IMG/VR virus record: IMGVR_UViG_2563366929_000005
From: a virus
Taxonomy: Duplodnaviria; Heunggongvirae; Uroviricota; Caudoviricetes
DNA: 39,640 nt
Direction: 5' to 3' (one strand)
Shown here: positions 1,395 to 18,059 of the stretch, in pieces
How the letters are laid out: each line of letters begins with the position of its first letter
Position numbering within the stretch: position 1 is the first letter of the stretch
Notes under the pieces: generated by a model
Told to the model about the DNA's origin: nothing
Database searches by the model: none
The model's input: the letters and a program-made list of their open reading frames with translations, nothing else
Made by a program: the position numbers and the translations under genes

Positions 1395-2528
1395 ATGAAT
1401 TATGAAAAATATCATAGCACAAACAGAAGCAAGGGTTTGCGAACCTTCTGCTACTTAATTTATTATGTGCAGGTGATTTTTAATGTGATGAAGTGTTTTA
1501 TGACTCGCGGAAACTTTGATTTTATAAACTCTAACGTGGTTTTCTCAGAAGCCGATAAGTCATTGTGGATTGATCTCATTAACACCGATTGTATTTGGTA
1601 TGATATGATAATTAATCCTCCTGATGATATAAGAACAAATAAGATAATAAAGAACTATCTCAGAATTATGGAAAAATATACGAGGGAAAGCTGTGAAAAG
1701 AGATTTATTTATTTCTTAGGTTCAAGAAAAAAAGTAAGGTTTTCAACCAAGAAACAGCCTAGGTATAACCCATTCACAAAAAATATAGTATTCACTCTGT
1801 TGATTGGCAAAGAAGAGCGAAAGCTTCGGATAAAATATTCCTTTTGCACGTTTACGCAGAATGGGGTAGTGAAGGTAACTCCAAATGTTAGAGTAACTGA
1901 GAAGTTTCTCTACATTGAATATGAAAATGGCAATTTATGTGTGATGTCAGTTCATGACTTCGTAAACGGACATTATATTGATTTAGGAATTCATACAGAA
2001 GTGCATTACGTAGGATATACACGTCATCCGCATCGGCGCCCTGTTGATTTTATTCACCGTGGCTTATCAAAGATGCTGTATAGCGTTTCAAATGACGATA
2101 ATGATTTTTTTGTTTGTTTTAGTATATTTAATCCAAGGATTATATCTCTGAATAATAAATGTAATGTGGTCTTTAATATTTCAAATTCTCTACTGGATGA
2201 AATTGATGTTGATAATGAGGGGAGAATTATTGAAAACTGCTTAATACGTTACTTTGATCCTAAGCTTCAAGATGATGACAAGGAAAGTAAAAGGTCAGAT
2301 TTAAATAAAATGTTTATGGACCTGGTGGAAAATAAAAAAATTAAAAAAATATACGTTAATTTTCAATATGAAAGGAATAATGAGTATTTCTGCTTTTACT
2401 CTAAAGTTGTTCCGCCGAAATTTCATCATTTCTTTGTGTTGGATTTTTCTGATGGCAAGATAAATATTGATAGAGACCAGGATATGATGACTCAGATGGC
2501 ATTGTGTATGGGGTATTATAATTATTAA
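1395..2528 (+). CDS. Hypothetical protein, AT-rich orphan (377 aa by longest ORF; true start may be ATG 1488)
   Basis: Long uninterrupted ORF in a visibly AT-rich segment, N/K/I/Y/F-rich translation, no motif I recognise. AGGTG lies about 11 nt upstream of in-frame ATG at 1488. Sits between int and xis. Confidence 0.55.
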   Translation: MNYEKYHSTNRSKGLRTFCYLIYYVQVIFNVMKCFMTRGNFDFINSNVVFSEADKSLWIDLINTDCIWYDMIINPPDDIRTNKIIKNYLRIMEKYTRESCEKRFIYFLGSRKKVRFSTKKQPRYNPFTKNIVFTLLIGKEERKLRIKYSFCTFTQNGVVKVTPNVRVTEKFLYIEYENGNLCVMSVHDFVNGHYIDLGIHTEVHYVGYTRHPHRRPVDFIHRGLSKMLYSVSNDDNDFFVCFSIFNPRIISLNNKCNVVFNISNSLLDEIDVDNEGRIIENCLIRYFDPKLQDDDKESKRSDLNKMFMDLVENKKIKKIYVNFQYERNNEYFCFYSKVVPPKFHHFFVLDFSDGKINIDRDQDMMTQMALCMGYYNY

Positions 2529-2737
2529 TATTTCGCTTGATACCAACTCAAAATCTTTTTTGTCGCATCCATTGTGGATTAATATTCAGAGGTAAGGGGT
2601 ATCTGCGGAATTTATATTTTGCAGGATGAGCATACAATACATGATATAACATCTGTTTTTGGCACAGAGCATATAGTCAGATTATGTTTAGTTCTGTGCC
2701 ATAGATGGATACTATCTCACCTCTTGGCTAACTCTCA

Positions 2738-2932
2738 TTACTCAATAATTCCAGCAAATCTGTATATTTTGCGTGATGCCCATTTATTTGGGCAGGATTT
2801 GATATCAGGATCTGGAAAATCAGGCCTGTATTTCTGGCCAGTTCTCCTGTTTACGCTGTTCCAGCGAAGAACAGTCGATACTGAAACGCCACAGAAGTCG
2901 GCGACTTGTTTAGTTGTCATTAAGTTGTTCAT
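2738..2932 (-). CDS. xis: AlpA/Xis-type excisionase-like DNA-binding protein (64 aa)
   Basis: MNNLMTTKQVADFCGVSVSTVLRW is a typical AlpA/excisionase HTH; AGGAGG immediately upstream on the minus strand; last gene of the leftward operon, adjacent to int. Confidence 0.7.
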   Translation of the reverse strand: MNNLMTTKQVADFCGVSVSTVLRWNSVNRRTGQKYRPDFPDPDIKSCPNKWASRKIYRFAGIIE

Positions 2933-3552
2933 TACTTCACCTCCTGCGGCGGCTCCGGTAGCGGCATCCAGTGGGTTACTTTCGATGCCGGTTCTTCCCC
3001 ATCGTCAGTAACTGCCCACCATTTGTTTCTCGACCAATCGTAATACCCTTCGAAGGTATCGCACTCAGTCCAGCCGTAAGACTTACCCCAACACCAAACA
3101 TACTGTTTATCGTCCGGCATTCGCTCACTACAGCTTATCCAACCATCCGGAGTTACCGGAGAGTTGCCCGACAGCTCGTTCAACTTGTAAGACTGGCTTA
3201 CAGGTTCGGCACCATGAAGCATGGCGGCGCGGCAGGCGTTCCAGCCTTCATCAAAGCCGACTATGCCATTATTTAAAGACGGACGAACATCTGGCACCAT
3301 CGGCACTGGCTTGGCTATATATAGCGGCTGAACATACCAGCCCTTTGATAACCAACTGTCAGCAATGTTTTTACTCCGTGTTATTGCCGGAATACCTAAG
3401 CCATTGTCTGAATGCAGCCATGCCACCGGTTCTGCTTTCAGCGAGGCTAACGCTATTTCATAAGCTCGGTGCTCAATATTGTCTCGCACGTCCAAGCTGC
3501 CTATGCGCTCTTTGATTTCTTTAATCAGTTCTTTGTCGGTGAAAGTGGTCAT
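2932..3552 (-). CDS. Phage protein with C-terminal DUF551-like domain (206 aa)
   Basis: C-terminus ...DGWISCSERMPDD...THWMPLPEPP resembles the DUF551 signature common in enterobacterial prophage early regions. Confidence 0.65.
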   Translation of the reverse strand: MTTFTDKELIKEIKERIGSLDVRDNIEHRAYEIALASLKAEPVAWLHSDNGLGIPAITRSKNIADSWLSKGWYVQPLYIAKPVPMVPDVRPSLNNGIVGFDEGWNACRAAMLHGAEPVSQSYKLNELSGNSPVTPDGWISCSERMPDDKQYVWCWGKSYGWTECDTFEGYYDWSRNKWWAVTDDGEEPASKVTHWMPLPEPPQEVK

Positions 3553-3553
3553 C

Positions 3554-3883
3554 TCACTCTCCTTTGATGCGAATGCCAGCGACGCGTAGTGCGTGTTCTA
3601 AGTCAATCAGGCAAAGCCAACTGCCATTTTCTTTAGGTATCATGACATGCCGCTTATTAGCATTTATTGGGTGCCCATATCGAAGGTCGTAGCGAGTCGG
3701 TAATTGAACTTCCCTCGCTTCCAGTTCTGTAATGCGTTTGTTTTTAGCTTCTAGTTCATCCAGCAGCGCCAGCACAACCTGCGGTGTGACTTTCATACGA
3801 AATGCCAGCAATTTTTGTGGTGTGGCTACTATTTTTATTGCTTCTGCCGCCTCACGCAGTACCTGATAGTCAATCTTGTTCAC
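3554..3883 (-). CDS. Hypothetical early protein (109 aa)
   Basis: ORF packed tightly in the leftward operon; no recognisable motif. Confidence 0.55.
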   Translation of the reverse strand: MNKIDYQVLREAAEAIKIVATPQKLLAFRMKVTPQVVLALLDELEAKNKRITELEAREVQLPTRYDLRYGHPINANKRHVMIPKENGSWLCLIDLEHALRVAGIRIKGE

Positions 3884-4119
3884 TGGTTGCCTCCTTTACG
3901 GATCTGCGCTGCGATGCACGAAAAAAAAGACTCTCGCGTATGACTGTTAAGAGCTGGCGCGAACGCCGCGTTAAGAACGGCAGCATCACAGCCGTCATCG
4001 ATATAGAGCGCAATTTTTTTCTCCAGGCGTGCTTTGGCTTCCTGCAACTGCATACCCCGGCACGCACGCGGGATATACTCAGCAATTTGAGCGATAGATT
4101 TTTCGTTCTGTTTAAACAT
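3880..4119 (-). CDS. Hypothetical early protein (79 aa)
   Basis: Overlaps its neighbours by 4 bp (stop/start coupling) in the leftward operon. Confidence 0.5.
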   Translation of the reverse strand: MFKQNEKSIAQIAEYIPRACRGMQLQEAKARLEKKIALYIDDGCDAAVLNAAFAPALNSHTRESFFSCIAAQIRKGGNQ

Positions 4120-6153: not shown

Positions 6154-6218
6154 AATAAGTCCTCACTATATTAAGATATTCAGTGATGAGATAAATAATC
6201 AGTTAATTAAGAACGATA

Positions 6219-6581
6219 TTAATGACCTGCTGCGCGGAGTTTTCCGTCAGGTTCACCGGCAAGAGTCAGTAATTGTCCCTGGTCTTCCTGCAGAATAGTC
6301 AGGCGACCACCGCGATTGACATACATCGGCGTTTCGGTGGTGTCTTCTTCAGAAATTTTCCCGCGGTTAGTCGGGCGAACATATGAGAGTTTGTGTTTGA
6401 TTTTCACACGGTTCTCATCAAACGGTTCGATTTCCAGGTTGAGCGAGACCTTACCTTTGGTTTTCGTGTTCATCACACCGGAAGCGACTTCACTGAGAAC
6501 TGCGCCGATTTTGGTTTCAAATACGCCGCCGTCCAGCTCCCCGATAAATGCCTGCACATCAGTACTGCGTTCGCTAGCCAT
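6219..6581 (-). CDS. Hypothetical early protein, 120 aa (first gene of leftward operon)
   Basis: The long ORF runs to 6767, but AGGAGCAGCAAA-ATG at 6581 gives a strong SD plus start; the upstream extension is Cys/His/Arg-rich and looks non-coding. Confidence 0.6.
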   Translation of the reverse strand: MASERSTDVQAFIGELDGGVFETKIGAVLSEVASGVMNTKTKGKVSLNLEIEPFDENRVKIKHKLSYVRPTNRGKISEEDTTETPMYVNRGGRLTILQEDQGQLLTLAGEPDGKLRAAGH

Positions 6582-6992
6582 TTTGCTGCTCCTCATCATA
6601 TCGACCCTGCAAGGTCGGTTGGTTTCTCCACAAAACAGAGAAGAACACCTGCGGTGGCAGCCGCCCGGATGGATTGGGTTATGAGCCCGTCGTCCGGTGA
6701 TGCTCTTCTCTGTTTTGTAAAAAGAGCGGTACCAGCCGGAAGCAAGTGTACAAACTGGTACCGCCAAAGCAGTGGCTGTTGTGGTGACCGGTGCTGATCT
6801 CCGGCTTGCGGTTATTTCAGACTCTCACGGGCGTTTAATTGCCCCGCCGAACAGCTCTTTTCCGCAATAGCTGCAATGTCTTTCGCGCATCAGCCTGCGC
6901 ATTCACCACAACGCTAAGGATTCTCTCTGGTTGAAAATACTTAGCTGTTATGTGCCTGCTTTTAGCCACATCAGGCGAGGTGGACCTGGTTA

Positions 6993-7052
6993 TTCCCCAA
7001 CAACAAGGATTTGGTTATTATGTAACCCTCCCCAACAACGATAAGGATTTAT
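6993..7052 (+). repeat. Two direct copies of TCCCCAACAAC..AAGGATTT, each ending in an SD-like AAGGA; the first is followed by ATG-TAA
   Basis: TCCCCAACAACAAGGATTTGG (6993-7013) and TCCCCAACAACGATAAGGATTT (7029-7050) read directly; ATGTAA at 7020-7025. Confidence 0.5.
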
Positions 7053-7142
7053 ATGGATCTATGTGTAGATAAGTATGAGGAGAGGCATGTGCCGTTAAGA
7101 CAAAAGCCTCCAGTTCCTCCAAAACCACCCAAGGAAAACTGA
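7053..7142 (+). CDS. Micro-ORF A, 29 aa, proline-rich tail (MDLCVDKYEERHVPLRQKPPVPPKPPKEN)
   Basis: AAGGA 5 nt upstream of ATG 7053; ends 7 nt before the 164-aa gene start; C-terminal PPVPPKPPK. Confidence 0.3.
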   Translation: MDLCVDKYEERHVPLRQKPPVPPKPPKEN

Positions 7143-7149
7143 GACTAAT

Positions 7150-7644
7150 ATGACCAGAGACGATTATAAATTTTATGTTCACTACTCTTATGTATTGGAG
7201 AAGATGAATTACACGTTGTTAACTCGCATTGATAAATTAATAACGTTGATGTTAATCGTTCTCGGTTTTTCAGTTTTCGCCCCGTACAGTAATTTATTTA
7301 TTTTCGGTTTGTTTGTTGCCGTACTTTCGGTTCTTCAGTTGGTCTATCAGTTTGGCCAAGAGGCTGGAATGTCTAAAGAGCAAGCGAGGCATTACAAAAG
7401 ACTGCTGATTGAGTCTGATACCCTTCCTGAAGATCAGTTGCAAGCTAGGTATTTAAAAATCCAAGATACTGATAGTAATCCATGGAAATCACTTGAACGA
7501 GCGGCTTTCATTCGGGCCTGTATTTTTGCTGGTGTTCCAACTAAGTACGATTTAACAACCAAAGAAAAATTTATAGCTTGGTGTGCGGGAGATCTACCTC
7601 TAGAGAATGAACTAACGGATATTAATGATGACCAACAAGCATAA
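7150..7644 (+). CDS. Two-transmembrane membrane protein, 164 aa, unknown function (candidate exclusion/abortive-infection effector)
   Basis: Clean ORF in an AT-rich region; two adjacent hydrophobic helices (LITLMLIVLGFSVFAPY and LFIFGLFVAVLSVLQLVYQF) followed by a charged, about 90-aa soluble tail. Rightward, convergent with cI. Confidence 0.6.
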   Translation: MTRDDYKFYVHYSYVLEKMNYTLLTRIDKLITLMLIVLGFSVFAPYSNLFIFGLFVAVLSVLQLVYQFGQEAGMSKEQARHYKRLLIESDTLPEDQLQARYLKIQDTDSNPWKSLERAAFIRACIFAGVPTKYDLTTKEKFIAWCAGDLPLENELTDINDDQQA

Positions 7645-7699
7645 TCCAGTTCACGGACATGTACCTCCGAAGCCGAAACCACCGAAACCGAAGAAATGA
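7625..7699 (+). CDS. Micro-ORF B, 24 aa, cationic proline-rich (MMTNKHNPVHGHVPPKPKPPKPKK); overlaps the 3' end of the 164-aa gene
   Basis: ATG-ATG at 7625/7628; frame checked codon by codon; weak SD. Confidence 0.2.
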   Translation: MMTNKHNPVHGHVPPKPKPPKPKK

Positions 7700-7718
7700 G
7701 ACATAATAGGATTGGATA

Positions 7719-7787
7719 ATGAGTCGACCAATAGAGCCTTTTCATATTCCACCTCGTCCCAGGCCACCAGATCCAGGCCCAAAGTGA
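7719..7787 (+). CDS. Micro-ORF C, 22 aa, proline-rich (MSRPIEPFHIPPRPRPPDPGPK)
   Basis: AGGA 7 nt upstream of ATG 7719; a weak hairpin (AAGCG...CGCTT plus TTTT, 7811-7834) lies about 25 nt downstream of the stop. Confidence 0.3.
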   Translation: MSRPIEPFHIPPRPRPPDPGPK

Positions 7788-7950
7788 GGGTTACTGATTT
7801 TTAAAGAGCGAAGCGTCCGGTAGGGCGCTTTTTTGGTACTAACGAATCATCCTGGACTTCATATGCCCCAGGCGGCTACTTCGTGGGCGTCCTGCCTGTT
7901 CGTTATCTTTGATATAAAATCTAACTTAACTTAGTTTTAATGGCAAGAGA

Positions 7951-7980
7951 AAACACCAAACTTTTCTTAGTTCGGTGTTT
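7951..7980 (-). terminator. Hairpin terminator downstream of cI (12-bp stem, better paired on the minus strand)
   Basis: AAACACCAAACT-TTTCTT-AGTTCGGTGTTT; on the minus strand the stem has one G-U wobble and is followed by TCTCTT. Confidence 0.45.
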
Positions 7981-8000
7981 TGGTTAGAGAAAAGGGGGGG

Positions 8001-8627
8001 CTAGAGTTCGTATTGAACTCCTTTGACTACACCAATGATGAGGCAATTACCATTGATCGGGATGTTGGGGTACCGGGGATTTAATGGCACTAAAAACTTT
8101 TGAGGGCCATCGATAACTAATTTTTTTACTGTGGCTTCGTTTGTTCCATCAAGTCTAGCGATGACTATTTTTCCATGCCGGGGTTCTGCATCAGGATCTA
8201 CAATCACTGTTGCGCCTTCTGGTATTGTTGGGAGGCCGTTAGGGTTAGTCATGGAGTCGCCTTTAACCTCCAATGCAAATGAGTTATCACCAATCTTTAA
8301 TGATGTATCTACCCACTTGTCTACTTCACTAAACACTTCTGCTGTCCTGCACTCAGTAAACTGCCCAGCCTGAACCCACGAGATTACAGGAACTCTGCGC
8401 ATGTTTGTGACGAGTTTGCCTTCAAACTCCGCACCATAAAGAATGTAATCTATTGACGTATTGAAGAACTTCGCTAATTTTGAAAGTGCTTCCCCACCAG
8501 GGACATTGATGTCTTTCTCCCAGTACCCCACAGCAACGTCACTTACTCCACAAAATTTACCCAATTCTTTCTGGGACGTTCTGGTAACTCTTCTCAGAGC
8601 TTTTATACGCTGACCAACCGTTTCCAT
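8001..8627 (-). CDS. cI: CI-type prophage repressor (N-terminal HTH, C-terminal S24/LexA-like peptidase), 208 aa
   Basis: N-terminal HTH (QKELGKFCGVSDVAVGYWE); C-terminal GDSM (catalytic Ser) and downstream Lys as in the LexA/CI autocleavage domain; divergent from a Cro-like gene. Confidence 0.9.
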   Translation of the reverse strand: METVGQRIKALRRVTRTSQKELGKFCGVSDVAVGYWEKDINVPGGEALSKLAKFFNTSIDYILYGAEFEGKLVTNMRRVPVISWVQAGQFTECRTAEVFSEVDKWVDTSLKIGDNSFALEVKGDSMTNPNGLPTIPEGATVIVDPDAEPRHGKIVIARLDGTNEATVKKLVIDGPQKFLVPLNPRYPNIPINGNCLIIGVVKGVQYEL

Positions 8628-8724
8628 AGGAGCACCATTTCTTTAATTACTAAGTAATCTTAGTTTTTATTGACCTAAGATAGATTGATAATTAACATCT
8701 AATAAAACTTAGTTTGGAGGGCAT
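8628..8724. promoter_or_regulatory. Divergent cI/cro operator-promoter region (OR-like)
   Basis: Perfect 16-bp palindrome ACTAAG-TAAT-CTTAGT at 8649-8664; further half-site-like AACTTAGTT at 8706-8714 (the same 9-mer recurs at 7926-7934); TTGACC at 8670-8675. Confidence 0.5.
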
Positions 8725-8925
8725 ATGACGACTGACGATATCGAAAGCTACTTCGGCAGCATTGAGAAAGTTGCTGCTTTTTTCGGCATAACAACTGAAG
8801 CCGTTTATCAGTGGCGAAACCGTCCTGGCCAGTTAATTCCAAAAGGACGTGCAGCAGAGGCTGCATATAGAACTTGCGGACGGTTGCCATTTAAACCTGA
8901 GCTTTATGAAAAATCTAATGGATAA
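8725..8925 (+). CDS. cro: Cro-like HTH regulator (66 aa)
   Basis: Small ORF divergent from cI, GGAGGG SD; HTH-like segment VAAFFGITTEAVYQWRN. Confidence 0.7.
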   Translation: MTTDDIESYFGSIEKVAAFFGITTEAVYQWRNRPGQLIPKGRAAEAAYRTCGRLPFKPELYEKSNG

Positions 8926-12106: not shown

Positions 12107-12904
12107 ATGAATAATCTGATGGTCATTGATGGTATTGAAGTTCGTCGTGATGCTTATGGTCGTTACAGCCTGAACGATCTGCACAGGGCTGCCGGTTCTC
12201 TGGATAAGCATAAGCCTGCATTCTGGCTCCGCAATGAGCAAACTGAACGTTTAATAAGCGAGTTGCAGATTTGCAACTCGGTCAATATAGAGCCAGTTAA
12301 CGTTATTCGTGGCGGAAATAACCAGGGGACGTATGTCTGCAAAGAACTGGTGTATGCCTATGCAATGTGGATCAGTCCGTCATTCCATCTGAAGGTGATC
12401 CGTACTTTCGATACGGTAACCAGCGCACCGGAAAAATTATCCGGGCAGGCTGCTGACAAGATGCAGGCTGGTGTGATTCTGCTGGACTTTATGCGTCGGG
12501 AGTTAAACCTGTCTAACTCATCTGTGCTTGGTGCCTGTCAGAAACTCCAGGAGGCTGTTGGCTTACCGAATCTGGCACCGCGCTATGCCATTGATGCTCC
12601 TGCCGATGCACCCGATGGCTCAAGTCGCCCCACGCTGTCGCTAAGTGCACTGCTGAAACAGTATGGTATCCGCCTGACGGCTAATCAGGCATATCACCAG
12701 ATGGTGAAGCTGGGGATCGTCGAGCAGCGCGAACGATACAGCCGTACCGCGATTAACAACATCAAAAAATTCTGGTCGCTGACGGCGAAAGGCTGCATGT
12801 TCGGCAAGAACATCACCAGTCCTGCAAATCCGCGCGAGACGCAGCCGCACTTCTTCGAATCCCGATTCCCTGAGCTGTTAAAGCTGCTCGATACCGTTCA
12901 TTGA
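12107..12904 (+). CDS. KilA-N domain protein (antirepressor-like), 265 aa
   Basis: AGGAG SD; N-terminal region (IDGIEVRRDAYGRYSLNDLHRAAG...KHKPAFWL) typical of the KilA-N domain. Confidence 0.72.
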   Translation: MNNLMVIDGIEVRRDAYGRYSLNDLHRAAGSLDKHKPAFWLRNEQTERLISELQICNSVNIEPVNVIRGGNNQGTYVCKELVYAYAMWISPSFHLKVIRTFDTVTSAPEKLSGQAADKMQAGVILLDFMRRELNLSNSSVLGACQKLQEAVGLPNLAPRYAIDAPADAPDGSSRPTLSLSALLKQYGIRLTANQAYHQMVKLGIVEQRERYSRTAINNIKKFWSLTAKGCMFGKNITSPANPRETQPHFFESRFPELLKLLDTVH

Positions 12905-14392: not shown

Positions 14393-14450
14393 ATGGCTGA
14401 ACGTTAAATGCGCTGGTGGTTGTGAATGCCGACTGCGGCGGTATTTTGGC

Positions 14451-14729
14451 GTGACGGCGCAGGTGCCGTATACCGATGTCTGGACGCATAAACCGGTGCA
14501 GTTCTATCCCGGGAAACATCCGTGCGAAAAACCGGCAGAAATGCTGCAGCAGATAATCAGCGCTAGCAGTCGTCCGGGTGACCTGATTGCAGATTTTTTC
14601 ATGGGGTCGGGTTCGACAGTGAAAGCGGCACTGGCGCTCGGGCGTCGTGCAATTGGCGTTGAGCTGGAGACTGAACGTTTTGAGCAGACGGTTCGGGAAG
14701 TACAGGATTTAGTCAGCCAGAACGGATGA
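14451..14729 (+). pseudogene. C-terminal remnant of an N6/N4 DNA methyltransferase (92 aa, GTG-initiated ORF)
   Basis: HPCEKPAEMLQQIISASSRPGDLIADFFMGSGST is the C-terminal SAM-binding region of PF01555-type methylases; no DPPY catalytic block upstream. Confidence 0.55.
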
Positions 14730-14769
14730 TATTGAAGAATTAATTACGCGTCGTTATTATGCGGCTCCC

Positions 14770-14845
14770 GGCCCTTTAGCTCAGTGGTGAGAGCGAGCGA
14801 CTCATAATCGCCAGGTCGCTGGTTCAAATCCAGCAAGGGCCACCA
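14770..14845 (+). tRNA. tRNA with CAU anticodon (Ile2/Met type)
   Basis: 7-bp acceptor GGCCCTT/AAGGGCC, T-arm GCTGG-TTCAAAT-CCAGC, anticodon loop CTCATAA, encoded CCA end. Confidence 0.8.
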
Positions 14846-14852
14846 TCACATA

Positions 14853-14929
14853 CCGCCATTAGCTCATCAGGATAGAGCACCAGCCTTCGAAGCTGGTTGC
14901 GCGGGGTTCGAGTCCTCGATGGCGGTCCA
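14853..14929 (+). tRNA. tRNA-Arg (anticodon UCG)
   Basis: Acceptor CCGCCAT/ATGGCGG, anticodon arm CCAGC-CTTCGAA-GCTGG, T-loop TTCGAGT, CCA end; boundaries +/- 2 nt. Confidence 0.72.
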
Positions 14930-14942
14930 TTATCTGTACCCT

Positions 14943-15019
14943 GCGTTGTTAGCTCAACCGGACAGAGCAATTGCCTTCTAAGCAATCGGTCACTGGTTCG
15001 AATCCAGTACAACGCGCCA
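14943..15019 (+). tRNA. tRNA-Arg (anticodon UCU)
   Basis: Acceptor GCGTTGT/ACAACGC, anticodon arm ATTGC-CTTCTAA-GCAAT, T-arm ACTGG-TTCGAAT-CCAGT, CCA end. Confidence 0.8.
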
Positions 15020-17519: not shown

Positions 17520-18059
17520 TTAGAAACTGCGTGGAGCTGTGGAAAGAATGGATGCCAGTTCTTCCTTCGATAAATCCCAGCTTCGATTTACAGCGTCAAT
17601 TTTCTTAAACTCATCAAGCATTGCGTTATAGAGATGTTCTGTACGTGAATGAGTATTGGCAATGGGCTGTTTCTGTTCGGGGAAGCGATCAATTTTCTGA
17701 TATGCCTCAATGATACTGAAGTAATCGCATTCATTATTACCGTCGAAACCTGGGAGCTGAATTGCCCCATCATGTATTTTTAGATGATGGTCACGGACTA
17801 ATTCTTTTTGCTCGTCATCACTAAGTTTCCTGAAAGCATTGGAAAGTCCGCGATACATATTCAAGACAGCAGTAACAAAATCACGATCTTCTTTACTTGG
17901 TTCGTCAACATCCAAATGTGAATATTCGGCCTTGATAACCCAATCATTACCAGATGACACAGCATATTTAACAAGCTGTGGATCAATATCAGTTTCGATA
18001 CCTAGGTGGATGGCAATGTCACATAACAAAATGGTATTGATTTTATCTTTAATATCCAT
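17520..18059 (-). CDS. YfbU (UPF0304)-like protein, 179 aa, opposite-strand moron
   Basis: ATG at 18059 with AGAGGG SD on the minus strand; lower GC than the flanks; motif order (...NMYRGLSNAF...LPGFDG...) resembles YfbU-family proteins from memory. Confidence 0.55.
   Translation of the reverse strand: MDIKDKINTILLCDIAIHLGIETDIDPQLVKYAVSSGNDWVIKAEYSHLDVDEPSKEDRDFVTAVLNMYRGLSNAFRKLSDDEQKELVRDHHLKIHDGAIQLPGFDGNNECDYFSIIEAYQKIDRFPEQKQPIANTHSRTEHLYNAMLDEFKKIDAVNRSWDLSKEELASILSTAPRSF

Follow-up and report, generated by a model that had tools for sequence, protein, structure and literature searches.

The sequence analysed here, a stretch of 39,640 nucleotides available as IMG/VR virus record IMGVR_UViG_2563366929_000005 (Caudoviricetes) and referred to below as the window, constitutes an entire lambdoid prophage of the SfV/CPS-53 type, and the subject of this work is an open reading frame (ORF) on its plus strand at positions 7150-7644, which codes for a small protein with two transmembrane (TM) helices and is called here the 2TM gene. 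In the initial annotation this ORF was viewed as a stand-alone gene. However, our analyses indicate that it is the main cistron of a conserved four-cistron cassette, in which it is preceded by a proline-rich leader micro-ORF that ends immediately before its start codon and is followed by two further micro-ORFs (Table 1). Our preferred interpretation, which is put forward tentatively and at rather less than an even chance of being correct, is that this cassette encodes a membrane-permeabilising defence effector expressed in the lysogen, that the proline-rich leader gates the translation of this effector, and that the phage's own lytic transcription silences it. Judging from its sequence, a membrane-active role in abortive infection or exclusion is the most plausible function of the 2TM protein. 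Three kinds of element were missed when the region was initially annotated, viz. the three proline-rich ORFs, the OL/pL elements (7918-7972) and the intrinsic terminator (7809-7834).

The 2TM gene and its protein product

To judge by its relatives, the ORF at 7150-7644 is a genuine and conserved gene, because its product matches the family PHROG 6315 (E=9e-64), has 72 homologues (53-98% identity) in Enterobacterales, and is connected by a profile search of 1.8 billion representative proteins to 222 more distant relatives. The alignment of the homologues contains 42 invariant columns, and members of the family occur almost exclusively in temperate phages. A second, word-indexed search with the alignment of distant relatives (A2) gave no further relatives and no Pfam labels. 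The PHROG families matched by the protein are of unknown function, and in E. coli MS8345 the same ORF is annotated by the Prokaryotic Genome Annotation Pipeline (PGAP) as a hypothetical protein (WP_001513551.1).

The architecture that had been described for the protein, viz. 164 amino acids (aa) with two adjacent TM helices and a charged tail, was upheld. In a Kyte-Doolittle hydropathy profile the two helices span approximately residues 29-44 and 49-67, with the uncharged loop PYSN between them, and the tail (residues 68-164) contains 12 K/R and 17 D/E residues. In the AlphaFold2 model, which is based on 28 homologues and has a predicted local distance difference test score (pLDDT) of 74, helices 3-41 and 47-88 form a long helical hairpin and are followed by four short helices. 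The protein is thus predicted to be a helical-hairpin protein of the inner membrane, and since its loop is short and uncharged and the flanking residues are basic, we infer that both of its termini are cytoplasmic.

With regard to the family to which this protein belongs, none had been recognised earlier. For the window protein itself this remains correct, in that it has no match to any Pfam or NCBIfam model at E<=1, the Pfam models searched at this threshold for RexA, RexB and SieB included. A comparison with known defence genes had also been proposed, and against PADLOC-DB v2 the protein matched 0 families at E<=1. As a statement about the whole family, however, the earlier view is too strong, given the signals from UniRef, from the NCBIfam model SLATT_4 and from the structure database BFVD. 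Two close homologues of the 2TM protein carry the label SLATT in UniRef; SLATT_4 is matched at a sub-threshold level by 24 of 94 distant relatives, the best of these matches (E=2.2e-5) being collinear over model positions 24-129; and one of the 94 matches the NCBIfam model SLATT_1. Ten relatives that were scanned individually with SLATT_4 scored 14-17 bits, for a model whose cut-off is 55. Foldseek searches against BFVD gave weak matches (E=0.06-1, TM-score 0.33-0.54), with 7 SLATT-named giant-virus proteins among the top 40, and nothing was found in the PDB, either by Foldseek or by a hidden Markov model search of PDB sequences. Further, the hydropathy profile and the AlphaFold2 model both contain the arrangement that characterises SLATT proteins, viz. 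two adjacent TM helices flanked by cytoplasmic helices. Among 28 close homologues there was no match to SLATT_1-6 and a single weak match to DUF4231 (E=0.071), and none of the 94 distant relatives had a SLATT match in Pfam at E<=0.01. A SMODS/CD-NTase, SLOG, TIR or reverse transcriptase (RT) partner is absent beside the ORF in the window and likewise beside its homologues in the Pfam-annotated distant loci. The protein is described here as SLATT-like, because its architecture and the remote signals agree, while no profile match establishes its membership in SLATT and the defining partner enzymes are absent. The definition of SLATT and the view that these proteins are pore-forming effectors reportedly originate with Burroughs et al. 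in 2015. A recent preprint likewise describes them as predicted pore-forming effectors of defence systems (bioRxiv 10.64898/2026.04.29.721553).

Proline-rich micro-ORFs accompany the 2TM gene

The conservation of the micro-ORFs was examined in 64 viral and 3 genomic loci, in nearly all of which the 2TM protein is 55-100% identical, and which represent 50 unique contexts. A proline-rich ORF within 150 nt upstream of the 2TM gene is present in 44 of 46 unique loci, compared with 0.025 expected per locus from the flanking sequence, and a downstream proline-rich peptide in 49 of 50 (expected 0.06). The upstream peptides have the consensus ..[DY]YEE[KR]H[MLV]P..[QK]RPP.PPK followed by an acidic tail, and the downstream peptides the consensus MS[KR]P[IV][EI]P[FN]H[VI]PP[KR]PRPP.P.K. 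Peptides akin to micro-ORF 3 (e.g. MS[KR]PIEPFHVPP[KR]PRPPQPGK) occur also where the 2TM protein is 55-64% identical. In close relatives the core of these peptides is H-x-P-P-x-P-R-P-P, and the enterobacterial versions of the cassette add 1-3 further micro-ORFs with this core.

The pairwise diversity at the wobble position is 0.62-0.67, i.e. near saturation, versus 0.26-0.37 at codon positions 1 and 2, and the conserved Arg is encoded by both CGN and AGR codons. Part of this signal is forced by the regular expression used for sampling the peptides, and the columns not forced by it (Pro codons 5 and 7 and Arg codon 6) behave alike. Because the wobble positions are near saturation, selection is acting on the peptide and not on the RNA. 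An RNA-element reading of the proline-rich segments was thus ruled out by this codon-position pattern, together with the results that no Rfam family matches these segments, that the leader RNA is no more stable than shuffled sequence (z=-0.67) and that RNAalifold found no conserved pairs in the leader in 19 loci. The codon-position pattern also rules out the Gly-rich minus-strand ORFs at 7651-7782 and 7434-7745, and homology supports the plus strand. A tblastn search with the 22-aa peptide gave no matches, probably owing to low-complexity masking.

The upstream micro-ORF has the properties of a leader peptide, viz. a short conserved ORF that ends next to the ribosome-binding site (RBS) of the downstream gene. 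It is typically 24-35 aa long and begins with ATG in every case, and all leaders except that of locus L076 are preceded by a sequence resembling a Shine-Dalgarno (SD) sequence. Between its stop codon and the ATG of the 2TM gene there are 4-20 nt (mode 8), and the stop codon forms part of an SD-like TGAGG (UGAGG in RNA) or TAAGG in 26 of 41 loci. Within the leader, the usual distance to the C-terminus is 15-20 residues for the His and 3-8 residues for the last PP. In the PGAP annotation of the MS8345 prophage the micro-ORFs are uncalled; in the records of the Providencia phage PSTNGR2lys and the Elizabethkingia phage EKP1, the leader is listed as a hypothetical protein. In some other records the reading frames are altered: in P0002 (186 aa) and in the ORF of locus L018, frame 0 continues past the normal stop into the region of the second peptide, and P0072 starts at the leader ATG and enters the 2TM gene after a frameshift. 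These cases point to gene callers mishandling tightly packed micro-ORFs.

Table 1. Location of the cassette and of the associated elements in the window
Feature	Position	Strand	Details
Backbone SD sequence AAGGA	7043..7047	+	Read from sequence
Exchangeable cassette, 748 bp (leader, 2TM gene and two further micro-ORFs)	7048..7795	+	blastn against phage Kati
Leader micro-ORF, 29 aa, MDLCVDKYEERHVPLRQKPPVPPKPPKEN	7053..7142	+	TGA stop 7 nt before 2TM ATG
2TM gene, 164-aa SLATT-like protein	7150..7644	+	ATG start; ORF, homology, hydropathy, AlphaFold2
Micro-ORF 2, 23 aa, MTNKHNPVHGHVPPKPKPPKPKK	7628..7699	+	Alternative ATG at 7625; overlaps 3' end of 2TM gene in +1 frame
Micro-ORF 3, 22 aa, MSRPIEPFHIPPRPRPPDPGPK	7719..7787	+	Proline-rich, inside cassette
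Intrinsic terminator of cassette transcript, in shared backbone	7809..7834	+	Predicted; ~9-bp stem, then U-run
OL, two cI operator copies	7915..7972		Cores ~7919-7935 and 7955-7971; direct (D1/D2) and inverted (I1/I18) repeats shared with OR
Probable pL promoter	7918..7946	-	-35 TTGCCA 7946-7941, 17-nt spacer, -10 TAGATT 7923-7918
Hairpin just downstream of cI stop, probable cI terminator	7950..7981	-	Inverted repeat I14, 13-nt arms, 92% complementarity
cI repressor (LexA/S24 family)	8001..8627	-	Context gene

Genomic setting of the cassette

A blastn comparison with phage Kati (L002) delimits the cassette, since the two phages have a common backbone at 6200-7047 and 7796-8627 and the 748 bp in between are unrelated. 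In phages with the same flanks, this slot is occupied by unrelated genes in either orientation, viz. a 144-aa gene in Kati and SfIV, the 98-aa minus-strand orf33 in SfV, and the gene for a helix-turn-helix (HTH) protein in mEp460. The backbone AAGGA serves the first cistron of whichever cassette fills the slot, and the backbone homology to Kati likewise ends immediately ahead of the start codon (ATG) of the gene in the Kati cassette. At the other end, the predicted terminator of the cassette transcript folds on the plus strand (61 nt) with a minimum free energy of -17 kcal/mol (z=-2.3) and has a U-run, whereas the fold of the same stretch on the minus strand is weak (-8.4 kcal/mol, z=-0.45) and lacks a U-run. 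The AT-rich island noted earlier is borne out by the GC contents of the ORF (37.8%) and the cassette (40.5%) against that of the whole window (50.2%), and the 2TM gene is indeed convergent with cI and located within an AT-rich, exchangeable part of the immunity/early-left area.

The backbone upstream of the cassette contains three direct repeats, CC(A/C)CAAC...AAGGATT, at 6906-6922, 6995-7011 and 7033-7049, the last of which includes the SD sequence. This repeat DNA is kept upstream of many homologous cassettes, where it appears as the spurious translation YSPTTRIRLIWISPTT. The repeats could be bound by a regulator, could form part of a promoter or could function as RNA in the pL leader.

The position of the 2TM gene relative to cI differs from that first proposed, where the gene was placed in the slot equivalent to that of rexAB. 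The cI operator repeat is present in three copies between cI and cro (8644-8723) and in two copies at 7915-7972 just below the cI stop, and only two promoter-like sites are seen in the region 6700-8800, viz. pR and the minus-strand pL candidate, which overlaps an operator copy. In SfV, a terminator is annotated at the place equivalent to the hairpin at 7950-7981. The order of elements is thus cI, terminator hairpin, OL/pL and the 2TM gene. Because OL and pL (7915-7972) separate cI from the 2TM gene, which is on the strand opposite to cI, the gene lies inside the region transcribed from pL, antisense to this transcript and outside the cI operon. Similarly, the genes on either side are both on the opposite strand in 51 of 67 unique loci, and the module is typically antisense within a lytic operon under repressor control.

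Two boxA-like sequences are present on the strand of the pL transcript: CGCTCTTTAAAAATC (minus strand, 7810->7796), which overlaps the cassette terminator, and CGCTCTTTTTACAA (minus strand, 6728->6715), which is located just upstream of yfdP. They may be antitermination signals of the nutL type; no N-like protein was identified.

The module in more distant loci

Of the 14 loci examined in which the 2TM protein is only 25-37% identical (GC content 33-61%), 13 keep a proline-rich ORF just upstream of it. Examples of these leaders are MNAPKPDAHKPINERPVPPPKPQRKS (L070), ...DHAPIYRTPPPPPPPRSD (L077), MPQPINERFEPKRPPAPKQPPNKGK (L087), MSDSDNFHVLPRPAPAPKPEPGQDKK (Fels-2), ...NHLNPKPIRPTPPPPSTPSDGGKK (Providencia phage PSTNGR2lys) and ...STPTPPPPTNTSNRGKPKQ (EKP1). 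The modules are nearly always surrounded by early-region or immunity-region genes of temperate phages. In Fels-2 and in a Yersinia P2/186-like phage, the module is antisense inside the early lytic operon, and in EKP1 it is antisense between Q and the holin gene. One locus (L084) contains between the cI repressor gene and the leader+2TM module a gene (2211-2981, minus strand) with KilA-N and BstA_C domains, which belongs to the BstA abortive-infection family, and two modules expressed in the lysogen would thus be adjacent in this case.

The record of Fels-2 (L082, NC_010463.1) annotates STM2733.1 on the minus strand at 3414-3818, over the 2TM homologue, and neither the homologue nor its leader is annotated. 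This homologue, which is 35% identical, is encoded on the plus strand at about 3501-3962, and STM2733.1 is probably a wrong-strand call.

Interpretation of the cassette

According to the interpretation that we tentatively prefer, cI would shut pL in the lysogen, so that the cassette would be transcribed at a low level, and the 2TM cistron would be translated mainly by ribosomes that have finished the leader, i.e. by termination-reinitiation. Pausing of these ribosomes at the PP/PPP motifs or at the stop codon would set, or sense, the ribosome flux onto the 2TM cistron. With regard to such pausing, it is established that polyproline stretches stall ribosomes and that the upstream context modulates the stall (PMC4176338), and that elongation factor P (EF-P) keeps transcription and translation coupled at polyproline leaders (PMC5021804). 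The SLATT-like protein would then oligomerise in the inner membrane and dissipate its potential, and a superinfecting phage would in this way be aborted or excluded. If, however, the prophage itself is induced, then strong transcription from pL would cross the cassette as antisense, leading to its silencing, and the phage's own lytic cycle would be protected.

A number of observations weigh against this interpretation. The window protein has no SLATT, PADLOC, RexB or SieB match, and the SLATT_4 scores of its relatives are far under the cut-off. A partner that could act as a nucleotide-signal sensor or other sensor is absent from the loci examined, and none of the other occupants of the slot is a known defence gene, for which reason an argument based on the slot being a defence hotspot was dropped. 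The initial annotation held that the gene needs its own promoter, and this is logical, but no promoter of the sigma-70 consensus is seen upstream of the cassette on the plus strand. Between the last PP motif and the AUG of the 2TM gene there are about 20-33 nt, depending on the locus (manual count), and occlusion of the RBS by a ribosome stalled at PP would therefore have no fixed geometry. One distant homologue (L085) is leaderless and co-directional with its neighbours. Lastly, if the proline-rich peptides were solely leaders, the micro-ORFs that follow the 2TM gene would be left unexplained.

It is with regard to these downstream peptides that the main alternative explanation accounts better for the results. 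Under this explanation the 2TM protein would have the proline-rich peptides as trans-acting partners, either as an antitoxin-like brake or as an activating ligand on its cytoplasmic helical domain. The cassette would in this case be a module of the toxin/antitoxin style serving in abortive infection or prophage maintenance, and the proline-rich motif would be a binding epitope rather than a stalling signal. Up to four paralogous peptides sharing one motif are encoded per operon, and the downstream copies cannot be leaders of the 2TM gene. The selection at the peptide level and the packed or overlapping cistrons, which suit stoichiometric co-translation, also agree with a trans-acting peptide, as does a natural fusion of the 2TM protein to the peptide in P0013 (Pectobacterium). 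However, this is the single true fusion that was found, and in its AlphaFold2 model the proline-rich tail is left undocked (pLDDT 47-63). Further, the motif is very degenerate beyond Pro and His, and the distant loci usually retain the upstream peptide alone, which always abuts the 2TM start. In view of these results, a role of the peptides as trans partners is considered possible but doubtful.

The 2TM protein could also act in a non-lethal manner by blocking the entry of DNA at the inner membrane, as do HK97 gp15, T4 Imm and P22 SieA, with the micro-ORFs serving to tune its expression. It is a small inner-membrane protein without an enzymatic domain or a partner sensor, and it is encoded by an exchangeable cassette (a 'moron') near the immunity region of temperate phages, all of which is in keeping with such a role. 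However, the sole family signal obtained is to SLATT effectors, which are predicted toxins, and the antisense placement in lytic operons of phages of very different types suggests that the product must apparently be off during the phage's own lytic growth. As such a placement fits a toxic effector better, superinfection exclusion of the non-lethal kind is regarded as unlikely.

Less likely still is an explanation unrelated to defence, in which the 2TM protein is an accessory for host fitness or for the phage life cycle, such as a modulator of membrane stress or a timing factor for lysis or lysogeny. The family is almost confined to the early/immunity regions of prophages and to AT-rich swappable cassettes, it has the SLATT-like signal, and in one locus its neighbour is BstA; these facts argue for defence, even though the PADLOC search is empty for the 2TM protein, the matched PHROG families are of unknown function, and the other cassettes in the slot encode unrelated small proteins, including an HTH protein.

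A last explanation reverses the roles of the two components: the peptides would be the effectors, which in the manner of apidaecin and oncocin bind to the ribosome exit tunnel (or to DnaK) and throttle translation or phage replication, and the 2TM protein would be an accessory for immunity, release or localisation. The near-C-terminal core of the peptides, P-x-P-R-P-P-x-P-[KR], presumably matches residues 9-17 of apidaecin (PQPRPPHPR), and their motif [FH]-[IV]-P-P-R-P-R-P-P resembles Y-L-P-R-P-R-P-P, which we take to be that of oncocin. In its favour, apidaecin genes expressed within E. coli arrest ribosomes (PMC11347161). This explanation is nevertheless very unlikely, because the activity of apidaecin needs P11, R12, R17 and the C-terminal L18 (PMC11347161), whereas the window peptides contain PRPPxP but end in PGPK, PKPKK or PKEN and lack the R-L terminus; because constitutive poisoning of ribosomes would be costly in a lysogen; and because the universally conserved partner of the 2TM gene is the leader abutting its start, which points to control in cis.

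Comparison with known systems and significance

Similar to SLATT proteins, the window protein begins with a helix, continues with a tight 2TM hairpin and ends in a helical region; its distant relatives show the collinear sub-threshold matches to SLATT_4 and SLATT_1 and there are the weak giant-virus fold matches; and the setting of its gene is phage-borne or mobile-element-borne. It differs from them in that it matches no SLATT model, that a cyclase, SLOG, TIR or RT partner is not present in the loci examined, and that its gene is paired with proline-rich micro-ORFs, a pairing which was not found described for SLATT.

RexAB of lambda and SieB of lambda and P22 are encoded near the immunity region of lambdoid prophages, are expressed in the lysogen and act via the membrane to abort superinfection. 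However, rexAB is located between cI and OL and co-transcribed with cI, whereas the 2TM gene is located beyond OL/pL and antisense to pL, and SieB is co-directional with pL, to which the 2TM gene is opposite. The hok/mok/sok system, in which a membrane toxin is translated only via a coupled leader ORF and is controlled by an antisense RNA, is similar to the present cassette in its small and predicted membrane-active product, in the apparent coupling to an upstream ORF, and in that the module is covered by antisense, here the RNA of pL or of the early operon. The two are not related in sequence, the antisense in our case is a long transcript of a phage operon instead of a dedicated small RNA, and the 2TM product (150-180 aa) has a soluble domain.

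With TnaC, SecM, ErmCL, and the RAPP-type and EF-P-dependent polyproline leaders, the cassette shares a short conserved upstream ORF whose stop is near or inside the RBS. With the polyproline leaders it further shares PP/PPP motifs in the micro-ORF, which are known stalling signals (PMC4176338, PMC5021804). In contrast to arrest-peptide leaders, no conserved RNA switch structure was found, paralogous micro-ORFs are also present downstream, and stalling in this case is a prediction. The proline-rich antimicrobial peptides apidaecin, oncocin and Bac7 resemble the micro-ORF products in the PRPP-centred motif and the length of about 20 residues, but the window peptides are phage-encoded and lack the R17-L18 terminus of apidaecin, and their binding to ribosomes is conjectural.

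In our literature search, no paper was found that describes a prophage SLATT-like gene paired with polyproline micro-ORFs. What appears to be new in the present case is thus a SLATT-like membrane effector candidate that has a peptide-based operon architecture and is embedded in antisense within lytic operons. Because PGAP omits the micro-ORFs, this recurrent module has been read as a lone 'hypothetical protein'. For orphan SLATT-like proteins no trigger is known, and a translationally coupled polyproline leader is a candidate control point, the study of which could reveal how orphan 2TM effectors are triggered. If the cassette is a defence switch, then it links ribosome pausing to membrane-based abortive infection, and the placement of a toxin antisense within the phage's own lytic operon is a way for a prophage to avoid harming itself. 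The module is widespread, and experimental systems are to hand, viz. Salmonella LT2 with its Fels-2 prophage and the E. coli strains of 47 complete genomes.

A more far-reaching proposal, which is speculative and which we consider improbable, is that the module is an ancient two-part switch carried by unrelated temperate phages (lambdoid, P2/186-like and others), in which the polyproline micro-peptide reports on the state of translation (EF-P, release factor, or modification of the ribosome by an invader) and gates the synthesis or opening of a SLATT-like pore, and the extra H-x-P-P-x-P-R-P-P peptides are ligands of the ribosome or of a partner in the manner of proline-rich antimicrobial peptides. 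If this were true, abortive infection would have a sensing principle not known before, and relatives of proline-rich ribosome-binding peptides would for the first time be known from bacteria or viruses.

Other features of the prophage

The gene order of the prophage is int ... yfdR-yfdQ-yfdP, cI, cro ... Q, lysis genes, an HK97-type head and a lambda-type tail. Its integration site in E. coli MS8345 is between yjjG and prfC. The exact region is present in 47 of 5,426 complete E. coli genomes, and the flanks alone were matched in 2,420. Upstream of the cassette, a segment of about 120 bp (6800-6920) has 98-99% identity both with Stx-converting phages and with the lipoprotein (plp) region of phage P1/RCS47; this segment adjoins a 44-aa minus-strand ORF (6835-6969). 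A 342-aa hypothetical protein, which has no Pfam or PADLOC match, is encoded on the plus strand (1500-2528) between int and the early-left genes, a typical position for an accessory gene. A KilA-N domain protein (12107-12904, plus strand) matches the PADLOC candidate system PDC-S22 weakly and over a short stretch (E=4e-6). A pseudogene of a truncated DNA methyltransferase, with tRNA-Ile and two tRNA-Arg genes after it, occupies the segment at ~14433-15019 between Q and the lysis genes. Lastly, the HNH/terminase genes are separated from the lysis genes by a gene for a YfbU-family protein (17520-18059, minus strand), which runs against the late operon and constitutes another antisense island in this prophage.

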